From Schmidtea polychroa (taxonomy: Eukaryota), in the NCBI GenBank assembly GCA_044892525.1, contig CM097886.1, positions 126,666,124-126,730,000 on the forward strand: a stretch of DNA of 63,877 nt, given 5' to 3'. Positions 15,880-48,414 of this stretch are shown piece after piece. A program made the position numbers and the translations under genes. Numbering within the stretch: the stretch's first letter is position 1; the number at the start of each line of letters is the position of its first letter. The notes beneath the pieces are model-generated. The model was given only the letters and a program-made list of their open reading frames with translations, was not told the DNA's origin and ran no database searches.

Positions 15880-16969
15880 TGTTGAGGTCTCGATATTCGG
15901 GAACACTCAACTTACTGGTTCTTATATATATAACAAAACAAATAAAGACGTATATAAAGGTTTATTGAAAGTAAAATTTACCAAATATAATCCAATTACA
16001 ATTCTGAACAATCGATACTCGTTTGTTAAATTCTCCAACTGAAATGCGTGCAAAAGAAAGTATGTTTATTGTTATTTGTTGTGTGTGCGTGTTGTGTCTT
16101 CGTAAGCTTTTACTATTTGTGAATCGTTTTGTGCTGATTCAAATGATTGAATTATCCTCAGGATTTACCTTCGAATATAAAATCTTTGCGCTATTTTTGG
16201 GCGACTAAAACTAATTTTTCGTTGCTATTTATATAAAATTTTAGGGCAGCTGTTATTTTATAAATTAATTATTATTATTTTTTATAGTTTAAATAATTAG
16301 TTTTCGTTTTATTTCAAGAGGCACTTATTAATTATTCAATTTTTTCCATACGACTATTATCTTGTTTTGAAGAACACTTATTATTTCTAGAATATTTTTT
16401 CAGCTGATTATGAATAAAATTTTTCAACTGTTTAAAGAATTTATAAAATTTTTTGTTATATTGAATATCGAATTAAAATTAATTAAAATTTATTGTTATC
16501 AAATTAAAATTATTAAAATATTTTTCCCTTGTATATAATTAAGATGTTAACTAATAAAATCTATTAAATACATACACCCGATAAAATATTAACATTCTAC
16601 ATAAATATTCAAACGGAAAATAAGATAAAAATATTCAGACGGAAAATAAGATAAAATATACATATAAATAAGATAAAATATACATGGATTGTCACAATTG
16701 TTAATAAGATAGAATAGTCAATTATATTTACACAATTGTTGATAAGATAGAATATGCATAGTTTGCTCGACGATTTAGTCAGTTTTCAGATTGCTGGGTT
16801 GTCTTTGGGTTGAATTGATTTGCTTGAAATTGGGTTGGAATATTTATTGTTGGAATATTTATCTATCTGCGCTCTTCGGCGTACACATTTACTCTATATT
16901 TTTTGGGCCCTGTCCTGTAGTATTTGTCTAGGGTAAATGTAGTGATGGGCCTACCCTCATCATCTAACA
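15880..16969 (-). repeat. 3' LTR (1090 bp)
   Basis: Direct repeat of 28389-29478; minus strand begins TGTTAG and ends CTCAACA; one mismatch spotted by eye (16223 T vs 28732 C). Confidence 0.97.
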
Positions 16970-19193
16970 TTCCTCCCTGGGCCGTTAAGATAATGTCCGC
17001 ATTATCTCTTATACTGCGTACCAGCTCGATTTCGCTGTCTCTTATCAGCATCCTCGTTTTGTTGAACCCTTTTGCCAATGCGAGATTCAATGTGTCGCCA
17101 TCATTTATACGCCTTCCAAAATGTCGGGTCAATTCCTTTTCTGTAATCTGCTTCTTCTCCTTGGGTATGATAAAATTGGGTTCCTCCTCGATTGCGATAT
17201 CTGGTTCCGGTCCCAATTCGTCTATATCCATATTTTCCTCCTCTTGCTCGTTGATTGAGAAGTATTCCTCATCAGAGTCGAGGTCGCATTCCATTAGTTT
17301 TCCTGGATGGAATTTTGGTTCCTGTAATTCCAGTTTGACTGTTGCTTCAGGTATTCGTATTTTCTCCTCTTCGATGAATATTACGTCGTCATCGCTTTCC
17401 ATTAATTCATTTTCGAAAGTCCTGCGTGTCCCGTCTTTATTAAATTTCAATTCGATTTGCGATGGTTCTATATAAATATCTTCTTCATCGCCCGACATAT
17501 CCTCCAGACTACTTTCTTTAATGGGATATAACTGATCTTTCATTTGTTGTTCACTGAAGGCGCCTGAGTCCCATTTAACAACTTCTTCCCATTGATTTTC
17601 TACGATTGCATATATCACTTTGACGATCATCGTGGTTTGCCATGCTGGAAATGGTTCTGGTTCACGCAGCATTCTATTTATGCGTTTATCTTTGTCCCAC
17701 CTTTTGTGATGTCTGATTACCTGGTATGCCAGGTTGGACAATTTTATCTTGTGTGGCGCAACGTTTTTGACGTACGAGCACATAAATATATCTTCCGACA
17801 TTTCTCTAACTCCCATAACATTATAGAGATCTAATGTGAGAGCTTTGAGTTTTCCAATGATGTCGAATCCTACGACTATTTTTCCGCAAAGTAACTGTTG
17901 GATTTCGACCAGTGCTTCGTATTCATTTTTATTTCCGATGATATTTTCCTTGTTGGCCTTTGTCTTCTCTGGATAATAATGTAGGATTTTCGTTCTAGGT
18001 GTAATTTTCTCATCAAATATTGTTACACCCTTAAAATTCCGTATGCTGACCTCTACTGGCCTTAAGTTATTGTTGATGTCGCATACTAATTTTGCATCTA
18101 AAAACATTATCAGATGATGTCTCTCCGCCGTGGATAATTCTTTGTGGGTAAATGACATTTTTCTTCTGATGAAATCTCCATGCATATAAATGTTTGATTT
18201 AATGAGTTCCAACTGCTGAAATGGATTTGGGATAGTGGGTATGTATAATATTTCGATCGCTATGACACAGGGTAGGCTGTTCATTTGGACTATCAATTCA
18301 TTGTAGTCGTTTGGGACACTCCGATCATTTTTTGTAGTTTTTATTGTTATGGTGCAATTGCTCGTGGTGATCAACGGTATCCTTTGTTGGCATATTGCTA
18401 CCTCTGTTTTTGTGATGTGAAATAAAATTCTATGGGGCACTTTCTTTCCAGCTCTTGCAGCCTCCTCTGCATTGGGGAATTTGTCATACGCTCCGATTAA
18501 TTCTCTTAATTTGACTCTTCTTGCTTCGTTAAATTTGATAAGATGCAATTCCCTTTCTTCTATCTCGATTTTCATATCATTAGGAATGCATACTTGGTTG
18601 GGGAAACTTCTAATAGTAATGGGAGTACCATCTGTGCTGATCTTATTTTGCAGGTTTTTATAGAAACTGTGGTAGTGTTTCTGTAACATCGGCACATATT
18701 GCCTTATTTTCTGAGTTTCAGGATTTCGCTGAGGTTTTGTTCTTTGAGAATGCATGTGAACTGACGTATGTGGGTGCATTGATTTGTTTGAATGAAGACG
18801 ATTGGATTGATTAGATTGGCTGATTTGATTTTGGGTTATTGGAGGATCGATTTGATTAGACTGATTTATTTGGGGATTGATTTGACTGAATTGATTCGAT
18901 AAACTTCTTATTACTATTCTAAAAACAAATAATAAATAATTATGCTTGTTGCGCATTTGAGGTTTAACCTTATACGCAGTTATATAAATATTAATATATA
19001 TACTTTTATTATATATCATTGACCAATTTATGTAATTAAAATTTTTTAAGTTATTATACCAGTGTGGACAGAGTATATTGTCCAGGGATATATTTGTCCA
19101 AGTGAAAATGCCCTGGTGCTTCTTTGACCAGTCGGTGCCGATACCGCTGCCTTTTCCACTTGTACTTTTTATAAACTTGTACACTAGTGACAA
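16863..19193 (-). CDS. Accessory ORF3 with a degenerate REX4/ISG20-like DEDDh exonuclease domain (~17600-18115) and an acidic tail. The track start is TTG; first ATG at ~19019
   Basis: FLDAKLV...VSIRNFKGVTIFDEKITP...LLCGKIVVGFDI...KLSNLAYQVI parallels REX4/ISG20 vAlDCEMV...vSiVn..G.vlyD.yVkP...lkgrIlVGHal...sLk.La. Confidence 0.7.
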   Translation of the reverse strand: MSLVYKFIKSTSGKGSGIGTDWSKKHQGIFTWTNISLDNILCPHWYNNLKNFNYINWSMIYNKSIYINIYITAYKVKPQMRNKHNYLLFVFRIVIRSLSNQFSQINPQINQSNQIDPPITQNQISQSNQSNRLHSNKSMHPHTSVHMHSQRTKPQRNPETQKIRQYVPMLQKHYHSFYKNLQNKISTDGTPITIRSFPNQVCIPNDMKIEIEERELHLIKFNEARRVKLRELIGAYDKFPNAEEAARAGKKVPHRILFHITKTEVAICQQRIPLITTSNCTITIKTTKNDRSVPNDYNELIVQMNSLPCVIAIEILYIPTIPNPFQQLELIKSNIYMHGDFIRRKMSFTHKELSTAERHHLIMFLDAKLVCDINNNLRPVEVSIRNFKGVTIFDEKITPRTKILHYYPEKTKANKENIIGNKNEYEALVEIQQLLCGKIVVGFDIIGKLKALTLDLYNVMGVREMSEDIFMCSYVKNVAPHKIKLSNLAYQVIRHHKRWDKDKRINRMLREPEPFPAWQTTMIVKVIYAIVENQWEEVVKWDSGAFSEQQMKDQLYPIKESSLEDMSGDEEDIYIEPSQIELKFNKDGTRRTFENELMESDDDVIFIEEEKIRIPEATVKLELQEPKFHPGKLMECDLDSDEEYFSINEQEEENMDIDELGPEPDIAIEEEPNFIIPKEKKQITEKELTRHFGRRINDGDTLNLALAKGFNKTRMLIRDSEIELVRSIRDNADIILTAQGGMLDDEGRPITTFTLDKYYRTGPKKYRVNVYAEERR
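16970..16978 (-). promoter_or_regulatory. Polypurine tract
   Basis: Minus strand AGGGAGGAA immediately abuts TGTTAG of the 3' LTR. Confidence 0.85.
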
Positions 19194-22100
19194 TTGCTAA
19201 AATCGCGAATGATACTACACTTGTAGCTATTACATAAAAAGGCCATTGTGGTTTACTTGCTTTCTTTTGAAAGACTTGTAATTCGTTCCAGTTATTTATA
19301 ACTATCGGTTTTCCTGTAGGTAATTTTATCAGTTTCCTATCAGACTGTCTTGGATTTTTCATTATTAATTTTTTATATATTTGTCTAACCGCTTTAAATG
19401 TCGTTTTCCTATATATATTCGTTATCGTTTGTGATATAGGATGTGTGGGTGTTGAATTTATAGTAGTTGTTTTTCTGGTTGTTGATATCTTCTTTCTTTT
19501 TGGTTTTCTTATTCTAAGTCTGTTTATTTTAGTAGTTTTTAGTCTTTTGCACCCTATCTGTGATGTGTCAACTAATGTATTCCATTGTGCACAAAGTGTG
19601 TAATTAGTGTTGGGTTGTAGATTTCCGAATTCAACATTATCCCCTCTTTCAAATTCATTAGTTGATCTATTTTCAATTTTTTTCATAAGTTTGGGTATAT
19701 TATCCCTAGTTTCCAGATACAAGTCTCTTATTGGTGATTTATTTAAGTTATATACTCTAATTTTATATGGTGAAATGTTGATTAAAATATCTTCAGCCAT
19801 GTATTCTACTGAGTGTATGTTCTCGTTTTCTACTTCAGTTGATTTACACAACCCTATAATTGTTAAAAATGTCGCTGCCATCATCAGTGCTTTTTGTGAT
19901 CGTAATCCATATTTGTGAGGTGGTTTTTCTACTAACTCAGTTTCTGCTAATTTGCATCTGTTAACATGTACTATTATAGGATCCTCATTTTTATGTTTTT
20001 GTAAATGCAGGTTTTCATGTATTACTTTTACTACCTCGTATGGTCCTTTAAATGGTCTTGCTAATTTAGTTGTTTTGCCTTTTCCTACTTGTGGAGACAT
20101 AAGTCTAACCTTATCTCCCACTTTAAAATTATGAGGTTTGCTATTTTTATCGTAATCTGCTTTATATTGTTCTTGTCTGAATTTAACTTTTAAATTTGCA
20201 ACCTTGTATACCTCTTGTAATCTCTCTTGCATTAATGTTACATAATCTGGCGCATCTAAATATTGTGATACTCGAGGCTCAAAAATTGTATCAATCGGTG
20301 TCGCAGGCTCTCTTAAGAACATTAGAAAATATGGTGAATATCCCGTTGTCTCATTTGGTGTGATATTATGGATGTATGTACATTGATTAACGTATTCATC
20401 CCAATCATTTTGGTTTTTTCCCACAAACACAGCTAATCTACTTAGCAATGTCCCATTGAATCTCTCTACTAAACCATCGGTCTGAGGGTGGTATGCTGTT
20501 GTATTGATTTTATGCATGTTAAATATGTTAGCTACTCTTTTTATAGTTTCACTCATGAAATTTTTCCCTTTATCTGTTAATAATTTTCTTGGTGTACCGA
20601 TTTTAAAGATTATTTTTTCCACAAGTAATTTAGCTACTGTTTCTGCTGTTTCATCTTTTGTAGGAAATGCCTCTGCCCATTTTGTAAAATAATCGCTAAA
20701 AACTAGTATGTGCTTATTCCCCTTAATTGTTGTGGGTAGTTTACACAAAAAATCCATTGCGCACAATTCCATTGGTGATGTTGTGGCTGGGATTGGATGT
20801 AAAGGTGCTTTAGTTTTTGTTCCTGTATTTTTTCTAGTTGCGCATATTGTGCATGCATTACACCATCTCTTGACATCCTTTTTCAAATCGTCCCAATAAT
20901 ATTTTTGCATCAATCTGCTTGCTGTTTTCCTACTTGATAAATGACCTCCTAAAGCACCATCGTGGTATTGTAACAGAAGAATTTGTCTTAATCTTTGTGG
21001 TACTACTATTAATTGTTTACCGCTAAAATCCTCAATAACAATTAACTTCTTACAGATTTTATACTTTTGGTTAGTTCCCTTTTTTATTTCTTCTCTTATC
21101 TTGAAGAGTTCTGGATCTTTCATTTGTTCCTCATATATTTCTATTGGTTTTTCGGTTACTAATGCAAAAACTTCTAGTGCTCCTAACTCTGGAATTCGTG
21201 ATAATGCATCTGCATTCCTGTTTATTCTACCTGGTTTATATGCAATCTTTATGTGCATGTCTTGTATTTTCATTGCCCATTTTAACAGTCTACTGGATGT
21301 ATCTTTATGTTTCCATAACCCTTCTAATGGCTTATGGTCTGTTCTAATTACTACTTCAGTTCCATATATGTATGGTTTAAATTGTTTTAATGCAAAAACT
21401 ATAGCATAACATTCTTTCTCAATTGTTGAGTACCTAATCTGTGCTCCTTTTAATGTTTTGCTTGCATAAGCTATTACATAATCTTTACCCTTTTCCTCTT
21501 CTTGTCCTAAGACTGCCCCTACGGCCTTCCCGCTGGCGTCTGTCATGACAATAAACTGTTTTTTAAAGTCTGGGTATCTTAGTATCGGTGCTGTTATTAA
21601 TTTTTCTTTTAGTTGATCAAAAGCTTTTTGATGTTCATCTTTCCATTTCTTTTGTGGCTTGTTAATTTTATCGTTAATTTCCTGCACTATTAACACTCCT
21701 TTACTCTCTCCCTTTGTTTTGACTCCTTTTGTTAATTCAATTAGTGGTGCTGCTATTTTTGCATAATCTTGTATGAATTTACGATAATATCCTGTGAGAC
21801 CTAAAAATCCCTGTACTTGTTGTAATGTTTTTGGAACTGGGAATTTTTTAACTACTTCAATTTTATCGGGATTAGGTATTATACCATCTACTGTAACTAT
21901 ATGTCCCAAGAATAATGCTGAGGGTTCTGCCCATTTACACTTAGTGGGTTTTATTTTGATTTTTGCTTTTCTTAATCTTTCTAGTACGTTAGCTATATCT
22001 TTTAGATGTTCCTCAAATGTTTTTGATGAAATTAATATATCATCCATGTATACTGCGCAATGTTGTACGTCTACTAATACTGTATTCATTAAACGTTGAA

Positions 22101-24696
22101 ATGTTGCTGGCGCATTAGTTAACCCAAAAGGTAATCTTGTATATTCATATAAACCGTCTTCTATCACAAAAGCTGTCTTTTCCGCATCCCCCTCTTCCAT
22201 TTGAATTTGCATGTAGCCTTTATTTGCATCTATTACTGTGAAATATTTAGTATCTCTAAGTTTATCATATTGTTCTTGTGCTTTTGGGAATGGGTATGAG
22301 TCTTTTACTGTTACATCATTTAATTTACGATAATCAATGCACATTCGAATTTCCCCGTCTTTCTTTCTAACTGGTACGATAGGTGATGCCCATTGTGAAA
22401 AACTTTGTTTTATTACGCCTGCCTCTTTTAATTCTTTAATTTGTCGTTTTATTTCCTCCCTCAGTTTATATGGTACACTATAGGGTCTCTGTTTTATTGG
22501 TCTAGCATTCCCTGTATCGATTACATGTTTGATAATGTCAGTATCTCCTAAATCAGATTCGTGTTTTGCAAAAACATCACTGTATTCGTCAAGTAATATT
22601 TGTAGTTGTAGTTGTTGTGTTTCGTTTAGATAATTATTATTTATTTTAATTTTATCATAAAATTTGATATTATTCGCTCTACTCTGTTCGACCATTCTTT
22701 CACTGACATCCTTCGTCATCGACATCTCACATACTTCAAATGTTTGCTCTAATTCACCTTTGAACAACTTTCCCAATTTTGTACCTTTATGAATTTTTAC
22801 TTTATTTCTTTCGTAATTCGCGATTCTTATTGGAATTATCCCATTATTTGGAATTACACACTCGTCTGTTAACATTACGTTATGATTTCGTGATATTGCC
22901 GTTTCAGGCTCGAAAATGAAAGTGTCCTCACTTTTAACATTAACTTTTACTGGAATTATATGATCACTTTGATACTCTAGTTCAAATGTCTCTAATGCAA
23001 TTACCTCAGTAAATCTTGCGTCTTGATATATTGCCTTCCGTTTGACTGTACTATCCGTTAAATCGATTACACAGTTTTTTAACTTTTTGAGTATGTCCAT
23101 CCCAAGGACACATACGCATTTACATTCTGCTACTACCTTGAAGACATGTTCAACCACTTGATCCGAAAAGTGGACTGTTAATTCGATATCTCCTTTTAAT
23201 GGTATGTAATGTGATGATAATGAAATTACTCTATCTCTTGTGCTCACGATATTTTTCCTTTGGTTTCCGGTTAACTGATCTTCACGAATCATAGAAGCTG
23301 CTGCTCCTGTGTCACATAATGCCTTTATTATCGTATCATTTATCACTATTTGTAATTTAGGCCTTACTTCATTTAACCCTTCTAATATATCGTCAAGTTC
23401 TAACCCGTAACATCCATAAGTTTTCCTTGGAACACCATGACAATTACCATTTTCACCTGGGATTCTTATTTCAATATTATTTCTCAATTCTGTCAATTGT
23501 TCTCTTTGATTATCATATAACCCAATATGTGGTTGCTCAATATTTTCTGATCTGTTTGTATCGTCCTCTTTTTCATTGGTGATCATTATTTCACCCTCTT
23601 CCCTTCGACTTTTCATCCGCTTGATTTCCTTATCGTGCCTCGCAGTGATCAAATATTTGGCTATGAATGGACATAAACATGCTACCATTTTATATGAATT
23701 ACCAAAGACTTGTCTCAGTTGTCTTAACGAAACTAATGATGAGCAAATCATTTTCAATAGTGCTACTGTATAATATATGCCCAGTATAGTGGAAAATGTG
23801 TTACCGAGAATCGCAAAATATCCCCATATGCTGTATAATACTCTATACACAACTTTCCTGAAGTGCTCTTTTGATAATAATACATCAAAGTTGTAATTCC
23901 CTCCATAACTATTTTCGATGATTTTGTTTACCATGATAGAAAGAACTTTTTCTTTTTCATGAGGAAATAACATATGTTTTCTGGCGCTCTCTATCGCCTC
24001 TCTCGTATACATCCCATTGTTATCCATTTCGTTGACTTCCTGAAATTCTAACTTTTTCTCAAGTTCAGTTAGTTCTAGTTTTTGTGGTTTAGTCGCTTCT
24101 TTTCTATCTGACATTGTAATCCACATATCATCATTTATTTTGTATAATGGATCTAATAGATTAGTACATTTATCAATTTTTCTCGGAACATAGTCTTTAT
24201 CTGTTAATATCCTTATTATTGGTTGGAGGTATACAGTTTCTCCTTTATACACTACTGGCAATTCGTTTGTGCACTTATTATTCGTTGCTAACGATACGCT
24301 AACCGGTTTACACTGAAATGTTTGTATTACTTTGCCGACAACTCTTGCAAATGTCCCTTTTTCTGCAAATAAAATTGGTGCCATTAAATCTGGGTTTGTG
24401 ACTGCAACCGCCATCTTTGTTCTTAAAATTTCTCTGTTAAATTTACAATCGTTTGCAATAGTTGCTTGATATACTTTGTCCAATTGTACTAACTGATGAT
24501 GATAAAAGTAGTCGATTTTATTATTAAAATATGACGCTAGCTTGACATCGAATTTATCTATTCTTGATTTTGCCTCTTTAATTTCACTTCCGCTGATATA
24601 AATTCCCTCGTAATTTGTTTGTATGACTGCCTTACCACATTTAATACTTTCACCTTTTCCCACAAACCTCATCGCCTCTGTTTTAGAATCTGACAT
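19054..24696 (-). CDS. pol: Polyprotein: glycoprotein C-terminal half + TM, then PR, RT, RNase H, integrase (GPY/F), then a second signal peptide, ectodomain and TM
   Basis: 1880-aa ORF; LCDTGA (23305-23313), CIDYRKLN, YMDD (22039-22050), TDASG, HHCC, MDF/TDKG/VERFN, RPFKGPY; hydrophobic stretches flank the enzymatic core. Confidence 0.95.
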   Translation of the reverse strand: MSDSKTEAMRFVGKGESIKCGKAVIQTNYEGIYISGSEIKEAKSRIDKFDVKLASYFNNKIDYFYHHQLVQLDKVYQATIANDCKFNREILRTKMAVAVTNPDLMAPILFAEKGTFARVVGKVIQTFQCKPVSVSLATNNKCTNELPVVYKGETVYLQPIIRILTDKDYVPRKIDKCTNLLDPLYKINDDMWITMSDRKEATKPQKLELTELEKKLEFQEVNEMDNNGMYTREAIESARKHMLFPHEKEKVLSIMVNKIIENSYGGNYNFDVLLSKEHFRKVVYRVLYSIWGYFAILGNTFSTILGIYYTVALLKMICSSLVSLRQLRQVFGNSYKMVACLCPFIAKYLITARHDKEIKRMKSRREEGEIMITNEKEDDTNRSENIEQPHIGLYDNQREQLTELRNNIEIRIPGENGNCHGVPRKTYGCYGLELDDILEGLNEVRPKLQIVINDTIIKALCDTGAAASMIREDQLTGNQRKNIVSTRDRVISLSSHYIPLKGDIELTVHFSDQVVEHVFKVVAECKCVCVLGMDILKKLKNCVIDLTDSTVKRKAIYQDARFTEVIALETFELEYQSDHIIPVKVNVKSEDTFIFEPETAISRNHNVMLTDECVIPNNGIIPIRIANYERNKVKIHKGTKLGKLFKGELEQTFEVCEMSMTKDVSERMVEQSRANNIKFYDKIKINNNYLNETQQLQLQILLDEYSDVFAKHESDLGDTDIIKHVIDTGNARPIKQRPYSVPYKLREEIKRQIKELKEAGVIKQSFSQWASPIVPVRKKDGEIRMCIDYRKLNDVTVKDSYPFPKAQEQYDKLRDTKYFTVIDANKGYMQIQMEEGDAEKTAFVIEDGLYEYTRLPFGLTNAPATFQRLMNTVLVDVQHCAVYMDDILISSKTFEEHLKDIANVLERLRKAKIKIKPTKCKWAEPSALFLGHIVTVDGIIPNPDKIEVVKKFPVPKTLQQVQGFLGLTGYYRKFIQDYAKIAAPLIELTKGVKTKGESKGVLIVQEINDKINKPQKKWKDEHQKAFDQLKEKLITAPILRYPDFKKQFIVMTDASGKAVGAVLGQEEEKGKDYVIAYASKTLKGAQIRYSTIEKECYAIVFALKQFKPYIYGTEVVIRTDHKPLEGLWKHKDTSSRLLKWAMKIQDMHIKIAYKPGRINRNADALSRIPELGALEVFALVTEKPIEIYEEQMKDPELFKIREEIKKGTNQKYKICKKLIVIEDFSGKQLIVVPQRLRQILLLQYHDGALGGHLSSRKTASRLMQKYYWDDLKKDVKRWCNACTICATRKNTGTKTKAPLHPIPATTSPMELCAMDFLCKLPTTIKGNKHILVFSDYFTKWAEAFPTKDETAETVAKLLVEKIIFKIGTPRKLLTDKGKNFMSETIKRVANIFNMHKINTTAYHPQTDGLVERFNGTLLSRLAVFVGKNQNDWDEYVNQCTYIHNITPNETTGYSPYFLMFLREPATPIDTIFEPRVSQYLDAPDYVTLMQERLQEVYKVANLKVKFRQEQYKADYDKNSKPHNFKVGDKVRLMSPQVGKGKTTKLARPFKGPYEVVKVIHENLHLQKHKNEDPIIVHVNRCKLAETELVEKPPHKYGLRSQKALMMAATFLTIIGLCKSTEVENENIHSVEYMAEDILINISPYKIRVYNLNKSPIRDLYLETRDNIPKLMKKIENRSTNEFERGDNVEFGNLQPNTNYTLCAQWNTLVDTSQIGCKRLKTTKINRLRIRKPKRKKISTTRKTTTINSTPTHPISQTITNIYRKTTFKAVRQIYKKLIMKNPRQSDRKLIKLPTGKPIVINNWNELQVFQKKASKPQWPFYVIATSVVSFAILAIVTSVQVYKKYKWKRQRYRHRLVKEAPGHFHLDKYIPGQYTLSTLV

Positions 24697-25094
24697 GTAT
24701 ATTGTTGAATTATCGTTGCTCGTCGTTTTTGGTCTTTGATATTCTTGGAATCTACATCCGTGAACTGTTTACATCGTATCGTTCTGAATTTCAGTGTCTT
24801 TAGTTTAGTTAGATGGCATTCGTATTTATTTACCTTGTATATGATCATTGACTCACCTGTATCGCAGCTTGTCTCATCTAATGTACAGAACTTATGTGTC
24901 ATCATTTTCTTTGATGAACTATCAAATGACGCCTTGAATTTCCTTAATTCAATATAATATTGTCATCTTACTACAATATTGTCTGCCACGTGCCCCCATA
25001 TTTTATATGTTCCTCCTTCACAATATCCTCCTATTGATGACCATCCAACGACATTTACTAATTGCCTTACTCGTGCTCCTACCTGAGCATTTAA
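24669..25094 (-). pseudogene. Disrupted middle part of the glycoprotein ectodomain
   Basis: The gag frame continues past TAG (25095) and TGA (~24957) as LNAQVG...GGYCEGGTY...VVR*QYYIEL...FCTLDETSCDTG, then shifts frame into the pol ORF near 24770. Confidence 0.85.
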
Positions 25095-28000
25095 CTAAAA
25101 TCCATCCGGCGTTTTTATCTTTTTTGTTTTAAATGCATTTTCACATTCGATTGGTGCTATTATTATCGCTTCTGGTGCCCATGTTGGAGTTAATATTGTT
25201 CTCGCTATTTTATTACATACAAAACTTTCCTCTGAATATTTAACGATACATTCTCCTGCCTCAGTGTGAATGAAGTCAGACTCTTGATATATGTGAAAAA
25301 TCTTTGGATCTGCAACAATTAGTTTTGTTGGATTAGCCTCTGGGCAATTTTCTACATCTAATAATGAATATTTCTGTCCCCACTTAGGATTCTGACAGTC
25401 ATACGCTATGATCGCATTATTCCCTTTTATCAGATCTAATAACAATGTTATTACTATAATTACTATTGACATTGTCGACTTTCTTTCTTTTTGACTTGGT
25501 TTCATAGTTGTTTTATTTACTAGATTTTTTACTGTTTCCTCTGTATTATCTATTTCTACATTAATATTATCTTCTACGCTTTCCTGAGCACTTTCTATTA
25601 GACTCTCATCATACAGTATTTTCCATCCTCCCTTTAATTTTATCCATGGCATAGCATCTATCTTTAATTTATTATATATCATTTTAGCGATATTTTCTAT
25701 TTGATTCTTTGGATTCAATCGCAAAAGTTTCTTGTATCTTTCTATTAAATATGCCATTGCCGTAATCACTTTATCTCGATTAACTCCTGTTGTAAATAAT
25801 ATCTTTAACACTGTCTCTTCATTTGCTTCCTCTGCACTCAATTCTCTAATCTCTTTTTCCATTAATTTAATCTTTTTAACTATATTTTTTATTAACGCTG
25901 ATGGTTTTGCTTCCGGAAATCGTCTCGTATTCATTGCTTTAACTAACTCTGTTATCATTTTTATATCCTTGTCATTATCCTGATTTTTTGGGACTTCCTG
26001 TCTCATATTATTTGCAATATCTCTTAAACGCTCTGCTGCCTTTCTGTCATCTGACTTTTCGGCAATTTCCGATTTTCGAGGCCTTCCTCTACCTCGTCTC
26101 ATCGTCTCTGCGTCCTGCATATTTGCTTGTTTCGCAATTTTTTCTATTGTCTCATGTAAATTATCATATTTAGTATCAATAGGTTTAAAGATTTCCTCGC
26201 TAGCTGTTGGTGACCTCATTGCCCCTCCTGAAGAAGCATCCCACAATCTAAATAATTTATCATAGTCATTTTCGTCGTTTATACTCAATTCTACTGATGG
26301 AGTTGGTGTATCAATTTCTTTACTTTCTTGCCTTTCTATTACTGCAGAAATAATATTGTTATCAATGACGTTTACTCCATAGTCAATTATATATTCATTA
26401 TTCATCATTTCTACGCCGTTAAAATACAGTTTCACTTTATCATTATCTCCCAATTTCTCGGGCCAATTGGCTCTAGCCATCTGTTTCACTTTATTCACTT
26501 TTGTGCAAACATGTACCCCTGTACTACGCATAAGTAATCTCGAAAGGTCCTTTGCCTCAATAGTTATATTTAATGACTCATGTAATTTCTGATTTTTTCT
26601 CACAAATTCACCATAGCATTTTATCATTTCTTTCAATTCTATTTCTAATTCAAATACTCTTGTCATATTTTGTCTCTTTACCATTAGTGGTATCAAATTT
26701 CTCAAATATTCTAAGTCAATTCCTTCGACTTGAACTTTATTTATTATACGCAATGTCTCATTATCATCATAAGGCCATTTTTCTAATGTCTCTTTCAATT
26801 CTTCTTTTAACTCTTTACATCTATTTGTTTCTGCAAGAAATTTCTCATCCGCTTCTCTTGCTTCACGAAACTCATCATTATCTATATCTACATCATTGGT
26901 AAAACACTGAAACTCATTTAATGACATTTCTAACTTCCTCTCAATAAGTCTCCCATATTGAGTTTTAAATTCTTTTAATTCCTCCCTCAAACTGTTTATT
27001 TCATCATTAGCTGATATCAACTCAGCGCTATTAATCTGTTTTATCTCAGGCTCATTTTTAAATCTCACTCTATTAGGCGATTCGCTTCGCGCATTATTGC
27101 ATACTTTAGCTAAGTGACCATATTTCTGGCAGTTATAACATTTGATTTGTCCATTAAAATTTACTTTATCTCTACCATCATAATTATAAGGGCTCCCTCG
27201 CCTTTCTCTGTATGAATTCTGTCTATATGGACTTGTCTGTCTACGTCTCAATTCATTTGTATTATCTCTATTATCGTGTCTATTATTTCTATCATATTTA
27301 TTATTTCTCAAATTATTTCTACTAAAATCGACTCTATTATCTCTCGTATAATTATTTCTATTATATTCATAACGATTGTCTCTATCGAAAGTATTTCTAT
27401 TGTTTCTATTCTCAAAATTTCTATTTCTCACATTGTCAAACCTTCTCCTGTTTTCAGGCGATTGAATTCTATCTGGACTCGGGCTTACCCTTCGTCTATT
27501 TTTTACAAAGTTCAAATATAGTTGTTTCATCTCCTCCCAGGGGATGTTGTCATCTGACTTACCCAACTCAGATTTTACCTCTATGGGTTTTTGGATTTCC
27601 ATTGCATCTACATGTGAACTAAATCTATCTCGTTGTATTGCTTCTATACGCTTAGCTTTATGAACTAATTCGTTTAAATTACAATATTCTACCATAATTA
27701 GTGCTTTATATAAATATTTTTGTATACCATTCCAAAACTGATCCTCAATTAATTTTGCTGTGTGCTCCCCTGCACCAAATGCTTTTTTCGCTAACTCCGT
27801 AATTGTATATACATATTCACCAACTGATTCTCTAGTACCCTGATACCTGTTTCTAAATTTTTGAACGTTTATCTTTTGTAAATCGCTATCGATTACTATT
27901 TCTGCTCTCAGATATCTTACGAGTTGCTCAAAATTATTTCCTTTACATTCTAAGTTATTGTATGCCTGTAACGCATAACCTTTTAAATATAGTGGTATTC

Positions 28001-28175
28001 TCATTTTTAACTCATCAGGTGTCCACCCGCAAGCTTCTGCATACTGAGCGATCTCAGTGAAAAAATCGTCGAACTTTTCAGGCTCTCCTCTATATGGTTC
28101 TACTGGTAAAATTTTTATGTAATTATTATTATTATTATTCATTTTATAGACTATTCTATTTCTGAGATTATACAC
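25095..28175 (-). CDS. gag: Gag (capsid, CCHC knuckle, long extension with AT-hook) fused to an internal signal peptide and the N-terminus of a chuvirus-G-like glycoprotein
   Basis: YRGEPEKFDDFF...WTPDE..LYLKGYA capsid motif; CYNCQKYGHLAKVC; RRGRGRPRK; MSIVIIVITLLLDLIKGNNA followed by IIAYDC...YSLLDVENC. Confidence 0.9.
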   Translation of the reverse strand: MYNLRNRIVYKMNNNNNNYIKILPVEPYRGEPEKFDDFFTEIAQYAEACGWTPDELKMRIPLYLKGYALQAYNNLECKGNNFEQLVRYLRAEIVIDSDLQKINVQKFRNRYQGTRESVGEYVYTITELAKKAFGAGEHTAKLIEDQFWNGIQKYLYKALIMVEYCNLNELVHKAKRIEAIQRDRFSSHVDAMEIQKPIEVKSELGKSDDNIPWEEMKQLYLNFVKNRRRVSPSPDRIQSPENRRRFDNVRNRNFENRNNRNTFDRDNRYEYNRNNYTRDNRVDFSRNNLRNNKYDRNNRHDNRDNTNELRRRQTSPYRQNSYRERRGSPYNYDGRDKVNFNGQIKCYNCQKYGHLAKVCNNARSESPNRVRFKNEPEIKQINSAELISANDEINSLREELKEFKTQYGRLIERKLEMSLNEFQCFTNDVDIDNDEFREAREADEKFLAETNRCKELKEELKETLEKWPYDDNETLRIINKVQVEGIDLEYLRNLIPLMVKRQNMTRVFELEIELKEMIKCYGEFVRKNQKLHESLNITIEAKDLSRLLMRSTGVHVCTKVNKVKQMARANWPEKLGDNDKVKLYFNGVEMMNNEYIIDYGVNVIDNNIISAVIERQESKEIDTPTPSVELSINDENDYDKLFRLWDASSGGAMRSPTASEEIFKPIDTKYDNLHETIEKIAKQANMQDAETMRRGRGRPRKSEIAEKSDDRKAAERLRDIANNMRQEVPKNQDNDKDIKMITELVKAMNTRRFPEAKPSALIKNIVKKIKLMEKEIRELSAEEANEETVLKILFTTGVNRDKVITAMAYLIERYKKLLRLNPKNQIENIAKMIYNKLKIDAMPWIKLKGGWKILYDESLIESAQESVEDNINVEIDNTEETVKNLVNKTTMKPSQKERKSTMSIVIIVITLLLDLIKGNNAIIAYDCQNPKWGQKYSLLDVENCPEANPTKLIVADPKIFHIYQESDFIHTEAGECIVKYSEESFVCNKIARTILTPTWAPEAIIIAPIECENAFKTKKIKTPDGF

Positions 28176-28368
28176 TATTTCGGGTTGATTATCTATTTTA
28201 TCTTTTCGAATTATTTAATAATTTTCAAAACTGAATTTATTTATTTAAAAATTGGTCAATGATATTGTTTTTTTTTTTTATAAATATATTTTCCCAATAT
28301 AAAATACTATACCCTCTGATCTCAATTCCTATCCCCCAAATTGTGAATAACAATAATTGATTTTAAAG

Positions 28369-28386
28369 TCCCGGTTCGCGGCACCA
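28369..28386 (-). promoter_or_regulatory. Primer binding site, tRNA-Phe-like
   Basis: TGGTGCCGCGAACCGGGA 2 nt after the 5' LTR; complementary to a tRNA 3' end TCCCGGTTCGCGGCACCA, resembling invertebrate tRNA-Phe ends (tRNA identity is inferred). Confidence 0.8.
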
Positions 28387-28388
28387 AA

Positions 28389-29478
28389 TGTTGAGGTCTC
28401 GATATTCGGGAACACTCAACTTACTGGTTCTTATATATATAACAAAACAAATAAAGACGTATATAAAGGTTTATTGAAAGTAAAATTTACCAAATATAAT
28501 CCAATTACAATTCTGAACAATCGATACTCGTTTGTTAAATTCTCCAACTGAAATGCGTGCAAAAGAAAGTATGTTTATTGTTATTTGTTGTGTGTGCGTG
28601 TTGTGTCTTCGTAAGCTTTTACTATTTGTGAATCGTTTTGTGCTGATTCAAATGATTGAATTATCCTCAGGATTTACCTTCGAATATAAAATCTTTGCGC
28701 TATTTTTGGGCGACTAAAACTAATTTTTCGTCGCTATTTATATAAAATTTTAGGGCAGCTGTTATTTTATAAATTAATTATTATTATTTTTTATAGTTTA
28801 AATAATTAGTTTTCGTTTTATTTCAAGAGGCACTTATTAATTATTCAATTTTTTCCATACGACTATTATCTTGTTTTGAAGAACACTTATTATTTCTAGA
28901 ATATTTTTTCAGCTGATTATGAATAAAATTTTTCAACTGTTTAAAGAATTTATAAAATTTTTTGTTATATTGAATATCGAATTAAAATTAATTAAAATTT
29001 ATTGTTATCAAATTAAAATTATTAAAATATTTTTCCCTTGTATATAATTAAGATGTTAACTAATAAAATCTATTAAATACATACACCCGATAAAATATTA
29101 ACATTCTACATAAATATTCAAACGGAAAATAAGATAAAAATATTCAGACGGAAAATAAGATAAAATATACATATAAATAAGATAAAATATACATGGATTG
29201 TCACAATTGTTAATAAGATAGAATAGTCAATTATATTTACACAATTGTTGATAAGATAGAATATGCATAGTTTGCTCGACGATTTAGTCAGTTTTCAGAT
29301 TGCTGGGTTGTCTTTGGGTTGAATTGATTTGCTTGAAATTGGGTTGGAATATTTATTGTTGGAATATTTATCTATCTGCGCTCTTCGGCGTACACATTTA
29401 CTCTATATTTTTTGGGCCCTGTCCTGTAGTATTTGTCTAGGGTAAATGTAGTGATGGGCCTACCCTCATCATCTAACA
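28389..29478 (-). repeat. 5' LTR (1090 bp)
   Basis: Direct repeat of 15880-16969, followed by the PBS on the minus strand. Confidence 0.97.
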
Positions 29479-38673: not shown

Positions 38674-40403
38674 CACACTTGAAAATTTTAAATTTATGAA
38701 TATTTAAACAATCTTTCATTAAATCATAATATTAATTTTGCACGTTAAAAATTAATATTACATTTTTTAATTTGATTTTGTTTATTCAAAACAGCATGAA
38801 TTTATCAATAAGTTTTCAAATTTATCTTTTCTAACACCAATTGATCATTAAAAATAAATTTAAACACAAAAATGTTAATTATTTAGTTATATTATCGCTG
38901 TTTGCATATGAAATATATTAAGAAAATGATTTGATTAGAAATCCTTTTTTAATAAAATGACAATAAACTTCCGAGTAGCTAAACTCTGAAAATATTAAAG
39001 TTTCTTAGATTATTCTATAAAACATTTAATACGTCAAGTCTTAATTTTATACAGAAAGTTCGAATACTAGTAGAAAATTTTCCTGTCTGATTTCAATACA
39101 AATTTCGCCTAGACCAAAATTTTATCCCAGTTATTAAAAAATGTTGTTAGATTACCTGAGAGGCTTGTCCATACATTTGTCCAATTCCAGTATTATAGGA
39201 TGGGCCCGAAAAAATACTGGCTAAACATTTTTGAGGCGAAGTAGTAAAAATATTAAATTGATTAAATTAGCATGTGTTAAATTAATATAAATACTGATGT
39301 AAAAATTAGTATTGTTAAGGTTTTAAAAGTAAATTATTAAATTATATAGTTCAGATTAAAAGGAAAGCCGAAATTGAATGGCGGTAAAGCAGAGAAGCAA
39401 TGGCAAAGAAAGATATGATAAAAATAGAACACAAAAGGGTACAATCAGACATGAAATTGGAAAATGCGCAAACCTGAGGAAGTGGAATAAAGTGAAAAGT
39501 TATCGAAATTGAAGCTGGAAAACGGGAGAGGGGTAGATTAGGGGATGGTGAAAAAAACAGCGAGCAAGAAATTGTTAGAAAATGTGTAGAAAGGGTCGTA
39601 AAACAGACAGATGTGGAAAAACGTAAAATATTAATTAATTAACTAATTGGCTAATGGGAAATCCGAGCTAAGTGGAAGCCCGAGCCAATGGAGAACCCGA
39701 GCGATGAAGAAAACCCGAGCACGGCAATTTGGAAGGGTAAACAAACGAGGAATTCAGAGGGCAATTATCCAAAAAACCGGATAAACGAGGGTAAACAAAA
39801 GAAGGGGAATTACGAAGGGGGTCAACAGAAATAGCCAATTAGGGAATGATAACTAAAGAAGTCAAAACCAATTAGGTCAAAAATGGGGCAATTACAACGA
39901 TTATGGGAGTATATAAGGAAACTCAACATTCACATAATGGGCAATAGCCTTAGGTAGGGAAGAAGAAACCGACATTAAGAGTTAAAGGAATAGAATAGAA
40001 GAAGAAAAGAAATATAGGAAAACTGAAGAGTTAGACAAGGAGCGTCAAAGGAGATTAGATCAGAGAGTGGAACTAAATCAAAAGGTGAAACTTAATTTTT
40101 AATCGTACGAGGTTGAGACCTTCCAGAGTGGAGTCCGATCTGAAATTGTGTGAGAATTGTGATTAACCAACAGTGTGATTAATTGTTGAGAGTTGTGAAT
40201 TGTTATAAACCAAATATACGTTGGGAGTTTGCGTTTATTGATTTTGGAACACGAGGAGTCAGAGTAACCAACGGTTGATTTTGATATCACAAAACCCAAC
40301 AGTATATTCGTCCAAAAATCAGTACCTATTAAAGACTGCTTTTTAAAGTTAATCTGGAAGAGGTATTAATATAGAACAAACAAAACGTTCAACAAGTTTC
40401 TTT

Positions 40404-40576: not shown

Positions 40577-40701
40577 TAAAAATTACTCGCCCTACATAGC
40601 AAATAAGAAAAATATAGAAACCACCTGAATTGATAGAAAGGAATCAACTGAAAGTTATGAATAGGTCGTACCGAGGACCATATCAAATGTAAGTTCTAGG
40701 G

Positions 40702-41789: not shown

Positions 41790-44700
41790 TTTCCACGTTT
41801 ATATTTTATTGTGGTAATTCGTCGTTAATCAAAATACACTCAATTCTGAGAGTAATAGAAGTGACACGGGAAAATTGTTTGGCAGCGTTCGAAACAGCAG
41901 AACAGAAAATAAATTCGAAAATAAATTTGAAAGCTAAATTAAACTATAAAATATGCGAAACGATAGCAATTAAATGAGCAATCAAGGCGAATGGCGATTG
42001 TGAAGGGGAAGTATATAAAGTGAGACAAACGGTTTATGACAAAACTGTTGTAATAAAAGAGTATGAAACAGAGTTAAAGCATTTTGATGGATCATTCGAT
42101 GACGACACGGGAAAGCATCCATTTGCATCCATTTTGCAGCATGAGAGAAACAAGCTGTAATACCAGCGATTCAATTCTGGTATACGAGGATGATAACAAA
42201 AAGGTGCAATTTGCCACATCTAAAATCGATGTCTTTTAAAGAGATAAGGGAGAGCAGATTCAGGAGAAACCAGAAAGTACAGTGCTAAACTCAATAATGA
42301 ATATGACAATCAGAGTTATATCGGTAGGCGTGAATGAAACGTCAATGGTGGTAATGGCAACATCCCTAAATGATGGGATGAGATTCCTGAGGAAAGGCAT
42401 AAATACTAAATGTGGGCAAGCTGTTTTTGAGACGAATTACAAAAAATTATTTATCAAAGAAAATCGTCGAAGGGGCTCAAACAAAGTTGTACTCAGATGA
42501 ACTTAAATTAACAAATTATTTCAATAACAAGATTGACTATTTATTTAATTTCAGCCAAAATACAATCGAAGGGGTGTACCGGGAAATCATATTGAATGAC
42601 TGTAAATTGAACAAGAAAATTCTACGAATCCGAATCTGGTTGCTCCAATATTGATATCTGAAAATGGAATGTTCGCGCAAATTCTTGGTGTATAGCTACA
42701 AATGGAAAGGTGTACCTATTAAGTTGATGAGATATAAACAATGTGCAAACGAACTGTAAGTGAATTTTAATGGGAAACTGCGTACCAGTAACACAAATTT
42801 TATTGGAAGAGGACGTGAAGATTAGTGTTGCAATGCAATAGATTATTGGCTACACTATACTGATTGACGCCCGAATCATGGATTGCACTACCCGATCACA
42901 GATGGGTGAAAGTTCCAGAAAAATTGGATTTGACAAAATTGGAATATTTGATCCATTTTACATCGCTTGACAGCATGACTCAAAGTGGGATGTATTCAAG
43001 TGATGATATTGAAGCTACACGCAGAAACTTATTATTTCCCTCGAAAAAGGAAAGGGTAATAATGGAAGTGGTGGACACTATTCTCCCAAGTGGAACTGGG
43101 AACGTGAATTACGATTATCTATTAACGACAGATCATTACAAAAAGGCGACGTATAATACGATTAAAAAGATATGGGAAAAATTTATTTTTATCGGGCAAG
43201 ACTGTGCTGTATTAATCGGAATTTATGTAATTGGAATCATGATTAAAGTAATTATTTCACAGGAGTTATCAACACATAAATTATATACTATTACGGGTTT
43301 ATCTTGGAAATTGACTATTGAGTTTGTGCCAATGTTAGCTAAATATTTTATCACACATCACCAACATAAAGAGTTGGAAACTTTGAAAACTCGACTGATA
43401 AAAAGGAGAAAGGTACGTTACATTGATGTAACCACTACTTTCAATGATGACAAAACGACAATGGGAACATCGAAGAATCATCCCGTCGTACTTCAAAGAA
43501 CAAAAAAAACTGATGCGTTTTGAAATTATCAATTACTAAAAGAATCACTTTCAAATAAAAGCAATCAAGATACGTTCACTAGACTTTGTATACCAAAATC
43601 ATTTATCCAACCACTACCAGCGTATCCGGTCGATAAATTGAGAGAAATGAAACCAGTTGAGAACATTGCGCATATTGCATATTAATGTGAGAGAATCGAA
43701 CCGATAAGTGCAGAAATTTAAAGAAGAAACAGGCTAGGACTACCTGGTAATTATGTGCTAATGGTGTTGGCGAAGATTGGCAAACAACCATGAATAGTAA
43801 TTCAAATAAACAAAAACAGAGTTATCGATTATATCGAGTATTACAATTATATCAGAAGAGATACTGTAGGCAGAGGAAAAAAGACGAATCCGATAGTGTA
43901 ATCAGATCGTTATGCAGAAAGGTTGGAGAAATAGAAGTTAAACTGCTAATCAGTGACAGAAAAATTAGACATAACGTGCAAATTATGGAAAAAAATCCTT
44001 TATTGTGCTTGATTGTAATGGATGTGTTGGAACAGTTGGACAGAATCTTACTTGATTTTAAAACTGAAAATCTAATTGTGGGGAAAATAGGTGAAGTCAT
44101 TCGTAATTCAGGAGAAGTGTTTCTCAATAAAGCGTTAACTATCCCACCTCAAACAGAAGTGGTGTACTATGCAAGTGCGGCTAGTGTGAATGATGATGAA
44201 TTTATATTTGAACCTAGTCAAACGTTAATCGAGAAATACGAGACTCCAATGTGTGATGAAATCATAAAAGTCGAAAACCAATTATAACAAGTACGAATAG
44301 CGAATTATAGTGATAAATCAATTCGATTAAAGCCACAGTCAAGATTGGGCAAATTGTCTCACATGTCGGTGGAAACAGAAAAGAAAATTCCCAGGAACTT
44401 AAAGATTTACAAGGAACCTGAAATTGTGAGCACGGACCCAACCGAAAAACAAAGACAAGAATTTACAAAATTGTTGAGGAAATATCGAGATATTTTTGGG
44501 AAACATGAATATGATTTTGGGACTAACAAATATAATAGAACATGAAATCCCGTTGCTTTATGAAACCCCGATTAAAATAAAACCGTACAGAATCCCATAC
44601 ATCGTTCAAACCGAAAGTGATCAACAAAGCAAGGCGATGAAAGAATTTGGAATTATCAGAGACAGCTCCTCACCATTTTTGGCGTCTATTGTATTAGCCA

Positions 44701-46050
44701 AGAAAAAGGATTGAGATTTAAGATTTTGTGTTGATTATAGAAAACTGAATTAAGTAACACGAAAGGATACTAATCCAATCCTGTATCTCAAAAAATATTT
44801 GATCAGATGGGAGAAGCCCAATATTTTACGGTCATCTATTTAACTAAAGGCTATAATCAATTTAAAGTTAAGGAAGAAGATAGAAAGAAAACGGCATTGT
44901 CAGATGGTAAAGGTATATATGAATTCAATGTCCTGGCGTTTGGCTTGACGGGAACCCCAGCTACATAAGACATGCGTTAGTTTATATTGATGATATAATT
45001 ATTTTTTCAAATAGGTTTTACGAGCATCTCGATGATGTTAAAACAGTATCTGAGTGACTTAAAGGCGCAAAATTGAAAATTAAACCATTGAAATGTGAAT
45101 GGGGAAAATCCGAAGTAGTATATGTTGATCATATTATATCAAGAAGAGGTTTGCAAACCAATCCGGACAATATTTAAAAGGTGGAATCGTATCCAATTCC
45201 AAAGAATGCGGACGATGTGAGGAAATTTCTAGAATTAGCAGGATATTATAGAAAGTTTATAAAAGATTTCTTGCATATCGCGCAGCCGAAAAATAAAAAG
45301 TTTACATGGAGCAAAGCTCAACAAGAAGCTTTTGGCGCATTACAGTGAAAATTAATAATGGGACCCATTTGTGATGCCAAGATTTTACGAAATATTTCCT
45401 ATTAATGACTGATGCCAATAATATTGCATTGGGCACGGTGTTAGGTCAGCAAGTGGACGATGAGAAAGATCACGTAATAGCGTATGCAAGCAGATCTCTA
45501 AGGCCACATGAGAAAAATTATTCGACAATCGAAAAAGAAACATCGCTAGTTTAAAGTATTGCTACGTTTAGACAATACTTGCTGGAGCGAAAATTTGTTG
45601 TGCATACAGATCGCAATCCTCTTCTGTGGTTGATGAAGCATAGAGATTCAACTAGTAAATTAATCAAATGGTCACTTGCTCTTTTTGATTTTGAAATTAA
45701 ATATAGAGGAGGGAAAGTGAATGCAAATGCCGAAGCAATGTCAAGAATTCGCAATGTGGGTAGTGGAAGGGAAGCTTGCACAAAAACAATGGAAGGCACG
45801 ATATTTGCAGCAATCAAAGCAGCTAATAATATAACTAAATCACAAAGTGAACAGAGAGAGGATAAGCGACTTAAACAATTCTTTGAACATGCAATTATAG
45901 TCAAAAAAGAGAAAGACCTAAAGCAAGTAATAAGTGAAAATAGCAAATATATAATTCACGTAGGAATAAATAAATGCGTGAAAAACGACGAAATAATAAT
46001 CATAATCCATTAAAAACAGAGTGACTCGTTATTGATGCAATATCACGAAA
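41790..46050 (+). mobile_element. Decayed, diverged relative of the glycoprotein-bearing Gypsy element (glycoprotein, then PR, RT, RH)
   Basis: ANGDCEGEVY, FCSMRETSCNT, GMRFLRKG..KCGQAVFETNY, YFNNKIDY, GMYSSDDIEATRRNLLFP align with the 25.4-23.7 kb glycoprotein; then PR-like VMDVLEQL, CVDYRKLN, TDANNIALGTVL, FVVHTDRNPL; many stops and frameshifts. Confidence 0.9.
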
Positions 46051-46349
46051 TATCAAGCTCTCTTTTTAATAAATTCAATGGAAAAAATAATCAGTGGTGA
46101 AATTGGAATAAAAAGTTCTCATAATACAATCAACTAATCTATAAGTGTGACCACTGAGATTACGGTGACAAAGGAAATCTAAACATGTTATATTGCAAAA
46201 GCGTGGGGAACGTGCTGGAAAGTTGTGTCCATGAAGCGCTGTAACGACTGAGCTGCGTTTCTTAGGCCGAAAGGCATGAACATGTATTGGAAATGGGAAC
46301 ATCATCGATATGGACAAGAAACTGATGATATGCTTTTGAGAGGTCAATA

Positions 46350-48198
46350 GTTGAAAATATGGTGGATTGTGAAAATTTTTATTAAATATTTGATAAGTGG
46401 CATGGGGTATGCGTCGTGAACAGTGACTTGATTGAGTTTTCTTAGTGAACCGTTTTTTATTGTGACTACATGTATTGATGAGGCCAATGGTGATGAAGAA
46501 CGGGTATAATGACTAAATTTTCTAGACCAGTGAATTTGGCTTTGACTGCGTCGAGTTTGATGGGTGGGAAGGGTCTGGCTTGGTTGTATTGTGGTATGCA
46601 CGGTAATGTGTGAATATAATGAGTCAATATGGCTGTAGGTGGTATGGTATAAGATTTTGTGATGAAGTTTGGGTATGTGGTTGAGATTATCTAGATCATG
46701 CCGTGCATTGGCTCTGAATTAGGCGAGTGCTCAATATTAGACATATGTTTATTGCGTTCCATCGTGGCAGTAGATTGGATAGATCTGAGTTGGATCATTA
46801 GAGATACCTGTGTAAATATTGATCTTACGTTTGGTGATAAATTTGTGGATATTGTCTTTAGGTATCGGTTTATAGTGAAAAGTCGTCGATTTTTGCAGTC
46901 TACCATGAAGGATTGTTTGCTGAGGAAGTATTGGATGAATTGTGTCTGCTATGTGGAAGTTGTTAGTGAAAGTTGAGTTCAATGTCGGTAGAGTAAATGA
47001 GTTTTTTGTTCCCAAAAATTGAATCGATGTGCCGTTTAGTGCCAAGACGGTGAAAGGAGATTTGAGGTCTGGAGTTATAGTTGTTGGAAGGATCCAAAAT
47101 GATGATCCGGAGTGGACGAGGAAGTGAATTGATGAGGTGGAATTAATAGTTGCTTCAACGGTAAATATGTTGTTGATCGCAAAGGCGCCGCCTGAAAATC
47201 TAGGGTTCACAGACAGCGAAGTTAGTTTTTTTTGGGTAGAATTGGAGTAGTCTTTGTCGTATTGTTGTTTGTTTGAGCGATGGTTCACAAAAGTACAGTC
47301 TGAAAGGCATTTTTGTGCATGTGACCCGAAGAGATTGTGGGAATAACTCTTAAGATTGACGGACGATTTGGCCAAGAACATCTTATGTGACATGTTGTAG
47401 CGTCGGATGAAAATATTTTGTGAAAAAAACACCTCAGGGGTGGAAAAAGAACAACCTGTCAGTTCTTTGGAAGCATTAAGTTTGTCGAGGTGGGTTAATT
47501 ATCGCGTCGACAGCTTTTGTCAAGGAAGATATTTGTTGTTGAAGTGAAGGATGAGAAACGGATGAGATAAATGTGGATGTGATTTGAATAGGTGGTCTGT
47601 TGAACAGTTTATCTGCGAAAAGGATCGTCTCAATCGACGACGAGGAGTGAGGTTTGGACGTAATGTGGGAGCACGGTTAAAAAATAGTGACATAGGAGAA
47701 CAGTGTTCTTTGATAGACCGGTATGAGCGTTTTCTAGTTCTCGTACGAGCTTCGATAAAAATGATGATGGAGCTTGGCCTGCGTATGGAATGGGTTTTAA
47801 TAGTTTCCCTATTGCTCAAGTGTTTGTGGGTGAGTATTTGTTTGTATCACTGTGTTGATGGACTTGTATAGGTTTTCTGAGTCTAATGCGTCGGGTATTT
47901 GTGAACCTAATTCTGACATTATTTCGTCAGGTATCACCTCTAACAGGAGGTCTTGTCTTGATTTGGGGTTGGCGTTTGTGCGAGATTCAAAAATGCGAAA
48001 CCAAGACGACGCAGTGTCGTCTGAGTCTAAAAATATTAATTGGGTTCGACCGATGGATGTGGATGAGTGATGGTCGATGTTTATTTTGGCGCCTCCTCGT
48101 TTTCTGATAAAAAGTATGACTATTGACTGTTCTGGGGTTGAAAAAGGGTCGATGATGGGGAATCCGTTATTTAAGATGAAAAATTCGTTTTTGTCCAT
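46350..48198 (-). mobile_element. Degenerate Ty3/Gypsy remnant (CsRn1/Mag-like gag, PR, start of RT)
   Basis: SWFRIFESR gag motif; IHFLVHSGSSFWILP (D(S/T)G site mutated); SSSPLASSIHVVTIKNGSLR/KLNQVTVHDAYPMP. Confidence 0.8.
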
Positions 48199-48263
48199 TA
48201 AAAAATGTTTTACTAGATCTTTCGTAAAATCTGGGGTTACGCGAACTTGATAAAAAATGTTAT

Positions 48264-48414
48264 TGTGACGGACAGTGATGTTTTCCGTTTCCTTATTAAT
48301 TAAAGTTGGGTTTAGTATACATCAAAATTGGTCTCGCTAAAAAAATGCAATTCATCCTTTAAAAAGCAAAATCTTTGAATTTTAATCACCTATTGGTTCT
48401 TCCTCTTGCGTCAA
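48264..48414. repeat. ~150-bp direct repeat, copy 1 (possible LTR edge)
   Basis: Matches 51496-51649; identical core ttgggtttagtatacatcaaaattggtctcgctaaaaaaatgcaatt; both copies start TGT. Confidence 0.8.

Follow-up and report, generated by a model that had tools for sequence, protein, structure and literature searches.

A dead, truncated fragment of a gag-env-pol retroelement family in the planarian Schmidtea polychroa

Retroelements that carry an envelope gene between gag and pol are known from several animal groups. Chary and Hayashi (eLife 2026, PMC13524379) report GAG-ENV-POL errantiviruses with gB-type envelope proteins from Nematoda, Bryozoa and Platyhelminthes and, in the part of the paper available, argue that the arrangement is old. 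Among the elements described there are six Schmidtea families, whose ENVs share about 31-64% identity across the 12 pairs given (37.8% for Smed_2 and Smed_3); Smed_2 is present in 215 copies in the assembly used for that paper. The planarian Burro/GYPSM1 elements, as described in the accessible text of Arkhipova and Yushenova (2019, PMC6431247), likewise place between gag and pol an in-frame env that matches mononegaviral fusion glycoproteins, and carry Bcl-2-like and ubiquitin-like modules in the interval between Gag and Env. Going by the available portions of these papers, the architecture in which a glycoprotein precedes pol has already been published from planarians, nematodes and bryozoans alike, and it is not new here.

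We analysed a window of 63,877 nucleotides from Schmidtea polychroa (the whole stretch of contig CM097886.1 under study), in which elements of two families, here designated A and B, occur on opposite strands (Table 1). The main element, of family A, is young: its LTRs are 99.8% identical over 1,094 nt, and a CAAT target site duplication (TSD) is found on both sides. It is laid out as LTR, Gag, Bcl-2-like region, glycoprotein (G), transmembrane segment (TM), a protease (PR), a reverse transcriptase (RT), an RNase H (RH), integrase (IN), a second membrane protein, ORF3 and LTR, and its Pfam matches run in the order zinc knuckle, a weak Bcl-2-like match, a fusion glycoprotein of Monjiviricetes (PF24664), and then protease, RT, RNase H and integrase. 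Two stops and one frameshift near 24.7-25.1 kb disrupt its G. ORF3 (16863-19196, minus strand) has 777 codons, ends within the LTR and gave no Pfam match; it carries motifs which, by eye, we take to be DEDDh-exonuclease-like.

Table 1. Coordinates of the elements and their parts within the window
Feature	Position	Strand	Basis
Decayed internal fragment of a family-B GAG-ENV-POL element (probably Ty3/gypsy), both ends truncated	41795..46048	+	blastn and stop count
Fusion-glycoprotein ectodomain (PF24664, gB/chuvirus-type)	41795..43185	+	codons 1110-1590 of L035
Glycoprotein transmembrane anchor	43188..43272	+	mapped from hydrophobic segment 1592-1620 of L035
Aspartic protease, active-site region damaged	43782..44039	+	codons 1788-1884 of L035
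Reverse transcriptase, broken; YIDD near 44983	44507..45300	+	tblastn, mapping to L035
RNase H, broken	45307..45684	+	PF17917 E 1.6e-8, mapping to L035
Integrase zinc-binding domain, first ~15 codons; fragment end	46005..46048	+	codons 2560-2574 of L035
Main element, family A, comparator	15880..29478	-	LTRs, TSD, Pfam, frames
Solo LTR, family B, GTAT TSD both sides	39313..40301	+	91% to family-B LTRs
Unrelated gypsy-type repeat (gag-like, protease, RT start), truncated in RT	46194..48313	-	46 other matches at 76-88%

We conclude with high confidence that the plus-strand fragment is the dead remnant, truncated at both ends, of one copy of the multicopy family B, whose relatives encode Gag, G and Pol in a single frame and in the same order as the distantly related family A. 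The domain order and the Pfam matches to PF17917 and PF17921 point to Ty3/gypsy. A single blastn alignment joins it to open-frame relatives (82% over 4,407 columns, 26 indels), and codons 1110-2574 of one of these, the 3,329-codon open frame at locus L035, are the counterpart of the whole fragment; the largest indel relative to L035 is 34 nt. Decay is advanced, with 17 in-frame stops and 19 frame-changing indels. Gag, nearly all of the integrase, both LTRs and a TSD of its own are missing, and no plus-strand match to the rest of the integrase was found in the window beyond 46048. The G portion lacks its signal and about its first 60 residues, yet PF24664 is still recognized in the frame at 42864-43520 (E 1.9e-22); deletions at 43825-43833 hit the active-site motif of the protease.

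At the DNA level the fragment is 18% diverged from the nearest copies found in the same genome. Mismatches to L035 are biased towards third codon positions, at a rate of 0.29 against 0.07 at position 2 in G and of 0.17 against 0.05 in RT, and because the bias is present in both regions, both were still constrained as coding sequence while they diverged from the L035 lineage, before the decay of this copy. The copy likely stems from an older sub-lineage of family B; it would have inserted here and decayed, its ends presumably lost through deletion or neighbouring insertions.

A reading of the same DNA made from sequence only had described a decayed plus-strand element at 41790..46050 in which ectodomain, TM, PR, RT and RH follow one another as in the main element. 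All five of the motifs that it quoted are present, including FCSMRETSCNT (plus strand, 42132), the counterpart of FCTLDETSCDT in the main element (minus strand, 24890); YFNNKIDY, found in both (plus strand, 42517; minus strand, 24531); and GMYSSDD (plus strand, 42987), the counterpart of GMYTREA (minus strand, 24015). The bounds required slight adjustment, to 41795-46048, and the fragment does not stop with RNase H but takes in the beginning of the integrase. Searched by tblastn with ORF2 of the main element, the plus strand gave colinear matches over G and TM (42333-43451, 30%, E 7e-44), the stretch from protease to pre-RT (43925-44521, 24%), RT (44517-45369, 39-47%) and RNase H (45324-45764, 41%); the G match scored 167 bits, and the best of 100 shuffles reached 22.3 bits. 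The statement that the two elements resemble one another only at the protein level was nearly right: their DNA is mostly unlike and blastn finds only short stretches, but the best of these, in RT, reaches 66% over 175 nt (E 9e-7).

Both elements have apparently intact relatives in the genome. Of the 150 matches listed for each family, at least 11 for family A and at least 12 for family B are free of stops and fall within frames no shorter than 3,050 and 3,300 codons, respectively; the three family-B copies that were read through (L035, L037 and L038) have no stop. The elements of the two families are about 13-18 kb long, with frames of 3,050-3,361 codons; in the family-B relatives a single Gag-G-Pol frame of 3,329-3,361 codons is found. 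Fetched copies of family B have LTR pairs that are 96-100% identical, TG..CA ends and a shared primer binding site (PBS), and three of them, whose LTR pairs are 97-100% identical, show clear 4-bp TSDs (GAGC, GTAC and CTTT). The type of PBS presumably corresponds to tRNA-Trp in family B and to tRNA-Phe in family A; no tRNA gene is present in the window. Pfam places Gag, zfCCHC, PF24664, PR, RT, RH and IN in one frame and in that order in L035 (PF24664 E 3e-89) and L038, and in the same order in L036 apart from a match to the Gag core. These relatives likely encode a class III (gB/chuvirus type) fusion glycoprotein; a PDB sequence search with G returned no relevant match, only centrin-like noise. 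A genome search for PF24664, in which 68 of 2,580 candidates were scored, mostly members of an abundant 3,334-codon subfamily, is a sample rather than a census. Copies of family A also occur in tandem or near-identical clusters (G000:C2:60.01-60.04 Mb; C1:6.36-6.43 Mb). One locus related to family B (L048, G000:C52:146001-156000) has LTRs and a TSD and has lost RT, RH and IN internally, while keeping G, the protease and the post-integrase protein in one frame.

In a sample of 23 loci with G, drawn with family-A and family-B queries and hence biased towards these families rather than a census, the protease follows G by 218-675 nt at 19. The other four (L052, L054, L056 and L057) are truncated pieces with no protease within the 10 kb fetched; in three, G is immediately preceded by Gag-side sequence and the copy breaks off near TM; the fourth consists of a piece of G only. 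None of the four has pol before G in the little upstream DNA fetched. Trees of G and of RT-RH, built without an outgroup from the 11 of the 23 loci with enough cover, both separate A from B with a support of 100 and both place the fragment within B, nearest to L035. The two trees, whose congruence the sequence-only reading had proposed as a check, agree on the family split and on the fragment; inside family B they differ in the positions of L038, L058 and L047, and the RT tree is poorly resolved, with 4 of 8 forks open.

The earlier interpretation of the arrangement as an old lineage trait with at least two subfamilies is borne out: G precedes pol in two or more deeply separated families of this genome. 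"Independent", the word chosen for the fragment, is apt for a second lineage and misleading if taken to mean a second origin. A separate gain of the order by A and B would be in keeping with the finding that POL does not unite the GAG-ENV-POL elements of different phyla as a monophyletic group (PMC13524379, available part), but we consider it improbable: the two families align continuously from Gag through G to the integrase (36% over 2,373 aa), G sits at the same place in both, both have a second membrane protein after the integrase, and all six Smed ENVs fall into one cysteine category, C1a, in the same source.

The fragment itself might be a recombinant that took G and pol from different subfamilies of family B. 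Its identity to L035 is indeed lower in G (about 80-89%) than in pol (about 87-89%), and the disagreement of the G and RT trees within family B points the same way. Against this, G diverges faster than RT in all comparisons between families, the shortest path from the fragment leads to L035 in the G tree and the RT tree alike, and identity changes without a sharp step; we regard recombination as improbable.

Evidence for the unity of G and pol comes from the genome and from short reads. A genome DNA search with 41790-46052 as query gave 40 non-self matches, of which 25 run over the whole fragment in one piece (18 at 81-82% and 7 at 77-78% nucleotide identity), and 31 cross both TM and protease. 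Identity to L035 ranges from 78% to 89% per 250 nt, with no step at the junction of G and protease. In two studies, contigs built from short reads contain the fragment and extend across each of its ends (X1 41367-43010 at the 5' end; 45791-46079/82 at the 3' end), and none of those listed spans it whole. None of the listed read sets carrying it is an RNA set, which speaks neither for nor against its expression. Two short-read runs differ by about 1% and have a deletion joint from 43751 to 44185. An origin of the G and pol pieces in two separate insertions, or through an assembly error that joined them, is hardly credible. In its favour, an LTR and a TSD belonging to the fragment are lacking and no listed contig covers it entire; against it, the 25 one-piece loci refute the idea, the G-pol junction lies inside an open frame in the relatives, identity is flat across it, and the deletion allele in the two runs joins the G-side linker to pol-side DNA. 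The sequence-only reading, which had excluded a nested insertion or a misassembly and had named separate insertions with their own boundaries as the result that would overturn it, therefore holds, with two subfamilies, on the strength of the one-piece matches, the open-frame relatives and the concordant split of A and B in the trees. For the main element, the fragment settles that G before pol was inherited within the family rather than arising by chance at this locus.

Set beside the published elements, the family of the fragment has the order and the ENV type of Platyhelminthes_Rhabditophora_Smed_errantivirus_2 (and _1), as far as these are given in the part of PMC13524379 available. By eye, the runs FDGSFDDDTGK and KSMSFKEI are common to Smed_2 and the G of the fragment, and Smed_3 closely matches the main element; the fragment thus appears to resemble Smed_2 (or Smed_1) and the main element Smed_3, and the identity reported between the ENVs of Smed_2 and Smed_3 is close to that found here between A and B. 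Unlike Smed_errantivirus_2, the copy studied here is dead and truncated. As in gB-type errantiviruses, the ENV lies between GAG and POL and is a gB/chuvirus-type protein flanked by a signal and a TM. As in Metaviridae, the relatives have the order PR-RT-RH-IN, which the fragment matches up to the start of IN, together with paired LTRs, a PBS and a TSD; paired LTRs and a TSD are also found in the main element. The fragment adds a fossil sub-lineage to a catalogued clade, which will not surprise a specialist.

Burro/GYPSM1 shares with A and B the in-frame Env between gag and pol, and its Bcl-2-like and ubiquitin-like cargo has echoes here, namely a Pfam Bcl-2 match in family A (E 1e-4) and a ubiquitin match in L038 that falls below the cut-off (E 0.002). 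It differs in size, with an ORF1 of 4,873-5,140 aa and elements of more than 30 kb, according to the accessible text, and in its BIR, MATH and ankyrin cargo, for which no Pfam match was found in the three polyproteins scanned here. A metavirus with an RNA-virus-type glycoprotein before pol (Sacco et al. 2022, J Gen Virol, doi 10.1099/jgv.0.001739, as cited in the available part of PMC13524379) resembles A and B in arrangement and comes from a different host phylum. The Anakin elements carry a chuvirus glycoprotein of the same family as that found here, but are BEL/Pao elements of mosquitoes rather than Ty3/gypsy, as described in the text available (Dezordi et al. 2020, PMC7642597).

A further in-frame protein, with signal, ectodomain and TM, follows the integrase in the main element (window 19057-19890, minus strand), in L035 (8782-9987) and in L036 (8371-9270). 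It is present in both families, with a short shared FN3-like signature and, in A, a Thr-rich stalk, and is not part of the fragment. Pfam fn3 matches on it are below the cut-off (E 0.03-0.15). AlphaFold gave no confident fold for its ectodomain (mean pLDDT 35 and 38), a PDB profile search returned nothing at E<1, and a large search among proteins of 574-2,000 aa found it in none of 5,471 candidates, which is weak evidence. In all four polyproteins G is closely flanked by hydrophobic segments on both sides, and another lies near the C-terminus; the post-integrase signal is above threshold in three and is seen by alignment in the fourth.

This hydropathy suggests a model in which the polyprotein would be threaded through the endoplasmic reticulum in the manner of a flavivirus polyprotein. 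Gag would remain cytosolic, an internal signal would direct G into the lumen, and the G anchor would bring PR-RT-RH-IN back to the cytosol, after which a second signal and anchor would expose the C-terminal ectodomain to the lumen; the parts would be cut free by the signal peptidase of the host together with the protease that the element encodes. It is possible, though we hold the idea only tentatively and think it rather unlikely, that A and B encode separate attachment and fusion proteins, both cut from such a membrane-threaded Gag-G-Pol-X polyprotein, and that this design predates the split between the families. How G is made luminal and Pol cytosolic at a 1:1 stoichiometry with Gag, and the role of the post-integrase protein, matter for the intact relatives and not for the fragment. 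A literature keyword search returned no paper matching the full set of terms for a design of attachment plus fusion proteins in one polyprotein, and none on the processing of a gag-env-pol polyprotein among the titles and abstract openings covered. The available part of PMC13524379 does not discuss single-frame processing (the words "polyprotein" and "fused" occur 0 times) and has no second, post-integrase membrane protein.

The DNA around the fragment is crowded with other repeats. Old dispersed repeat DNA lies upstream, and a short high-copy repeat begins downstream at 46053. The family-B solo LTR was considered as the 5' LTR of the fragment and rejected; because a GTAT duplication flanks it on both sides and a PBS is absent, it is a separate insertion, and its closest genomic copies are 95-96% identical. 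Just before it, 39143-39250 (plus strand) resembles the start of a family-A LTR, with the C-terminal motif of ORF3 (tblastn E 0.01), and on the evidence of this piece an older A-like LTR may have received the solo LTR as an insertion. Two inverted repeats of 177 nt, 97% identical (36092-36268 and 40404-40580), enclose the solo LTR and a pescadillo (PES1) gene (PF06732), in which a short GT-AG intron is apparent by eye near 38.5 kb; they may represent a small repeat present twice, or the ends of a transposon around a host gene. At about 40700-41220 lies a small element, likely a MITE, that has inverted ends and is covered by contigs at very high depth.

On the other side of the fragment, the unrelated gypsy-type repeat has no room for G between its gag-like region and protease, and two of its relatives (L044 and L045) have PR-RT-RH-IN frames. 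Pieces of another gypsy-type pol, unrelated at the DNA level, lie at 58932-61254 and 2252-3270 (both minus strand), and a DDE_1 (Tc1/pogo-type) transposase frame is found at 50291-51166 (plus strand).
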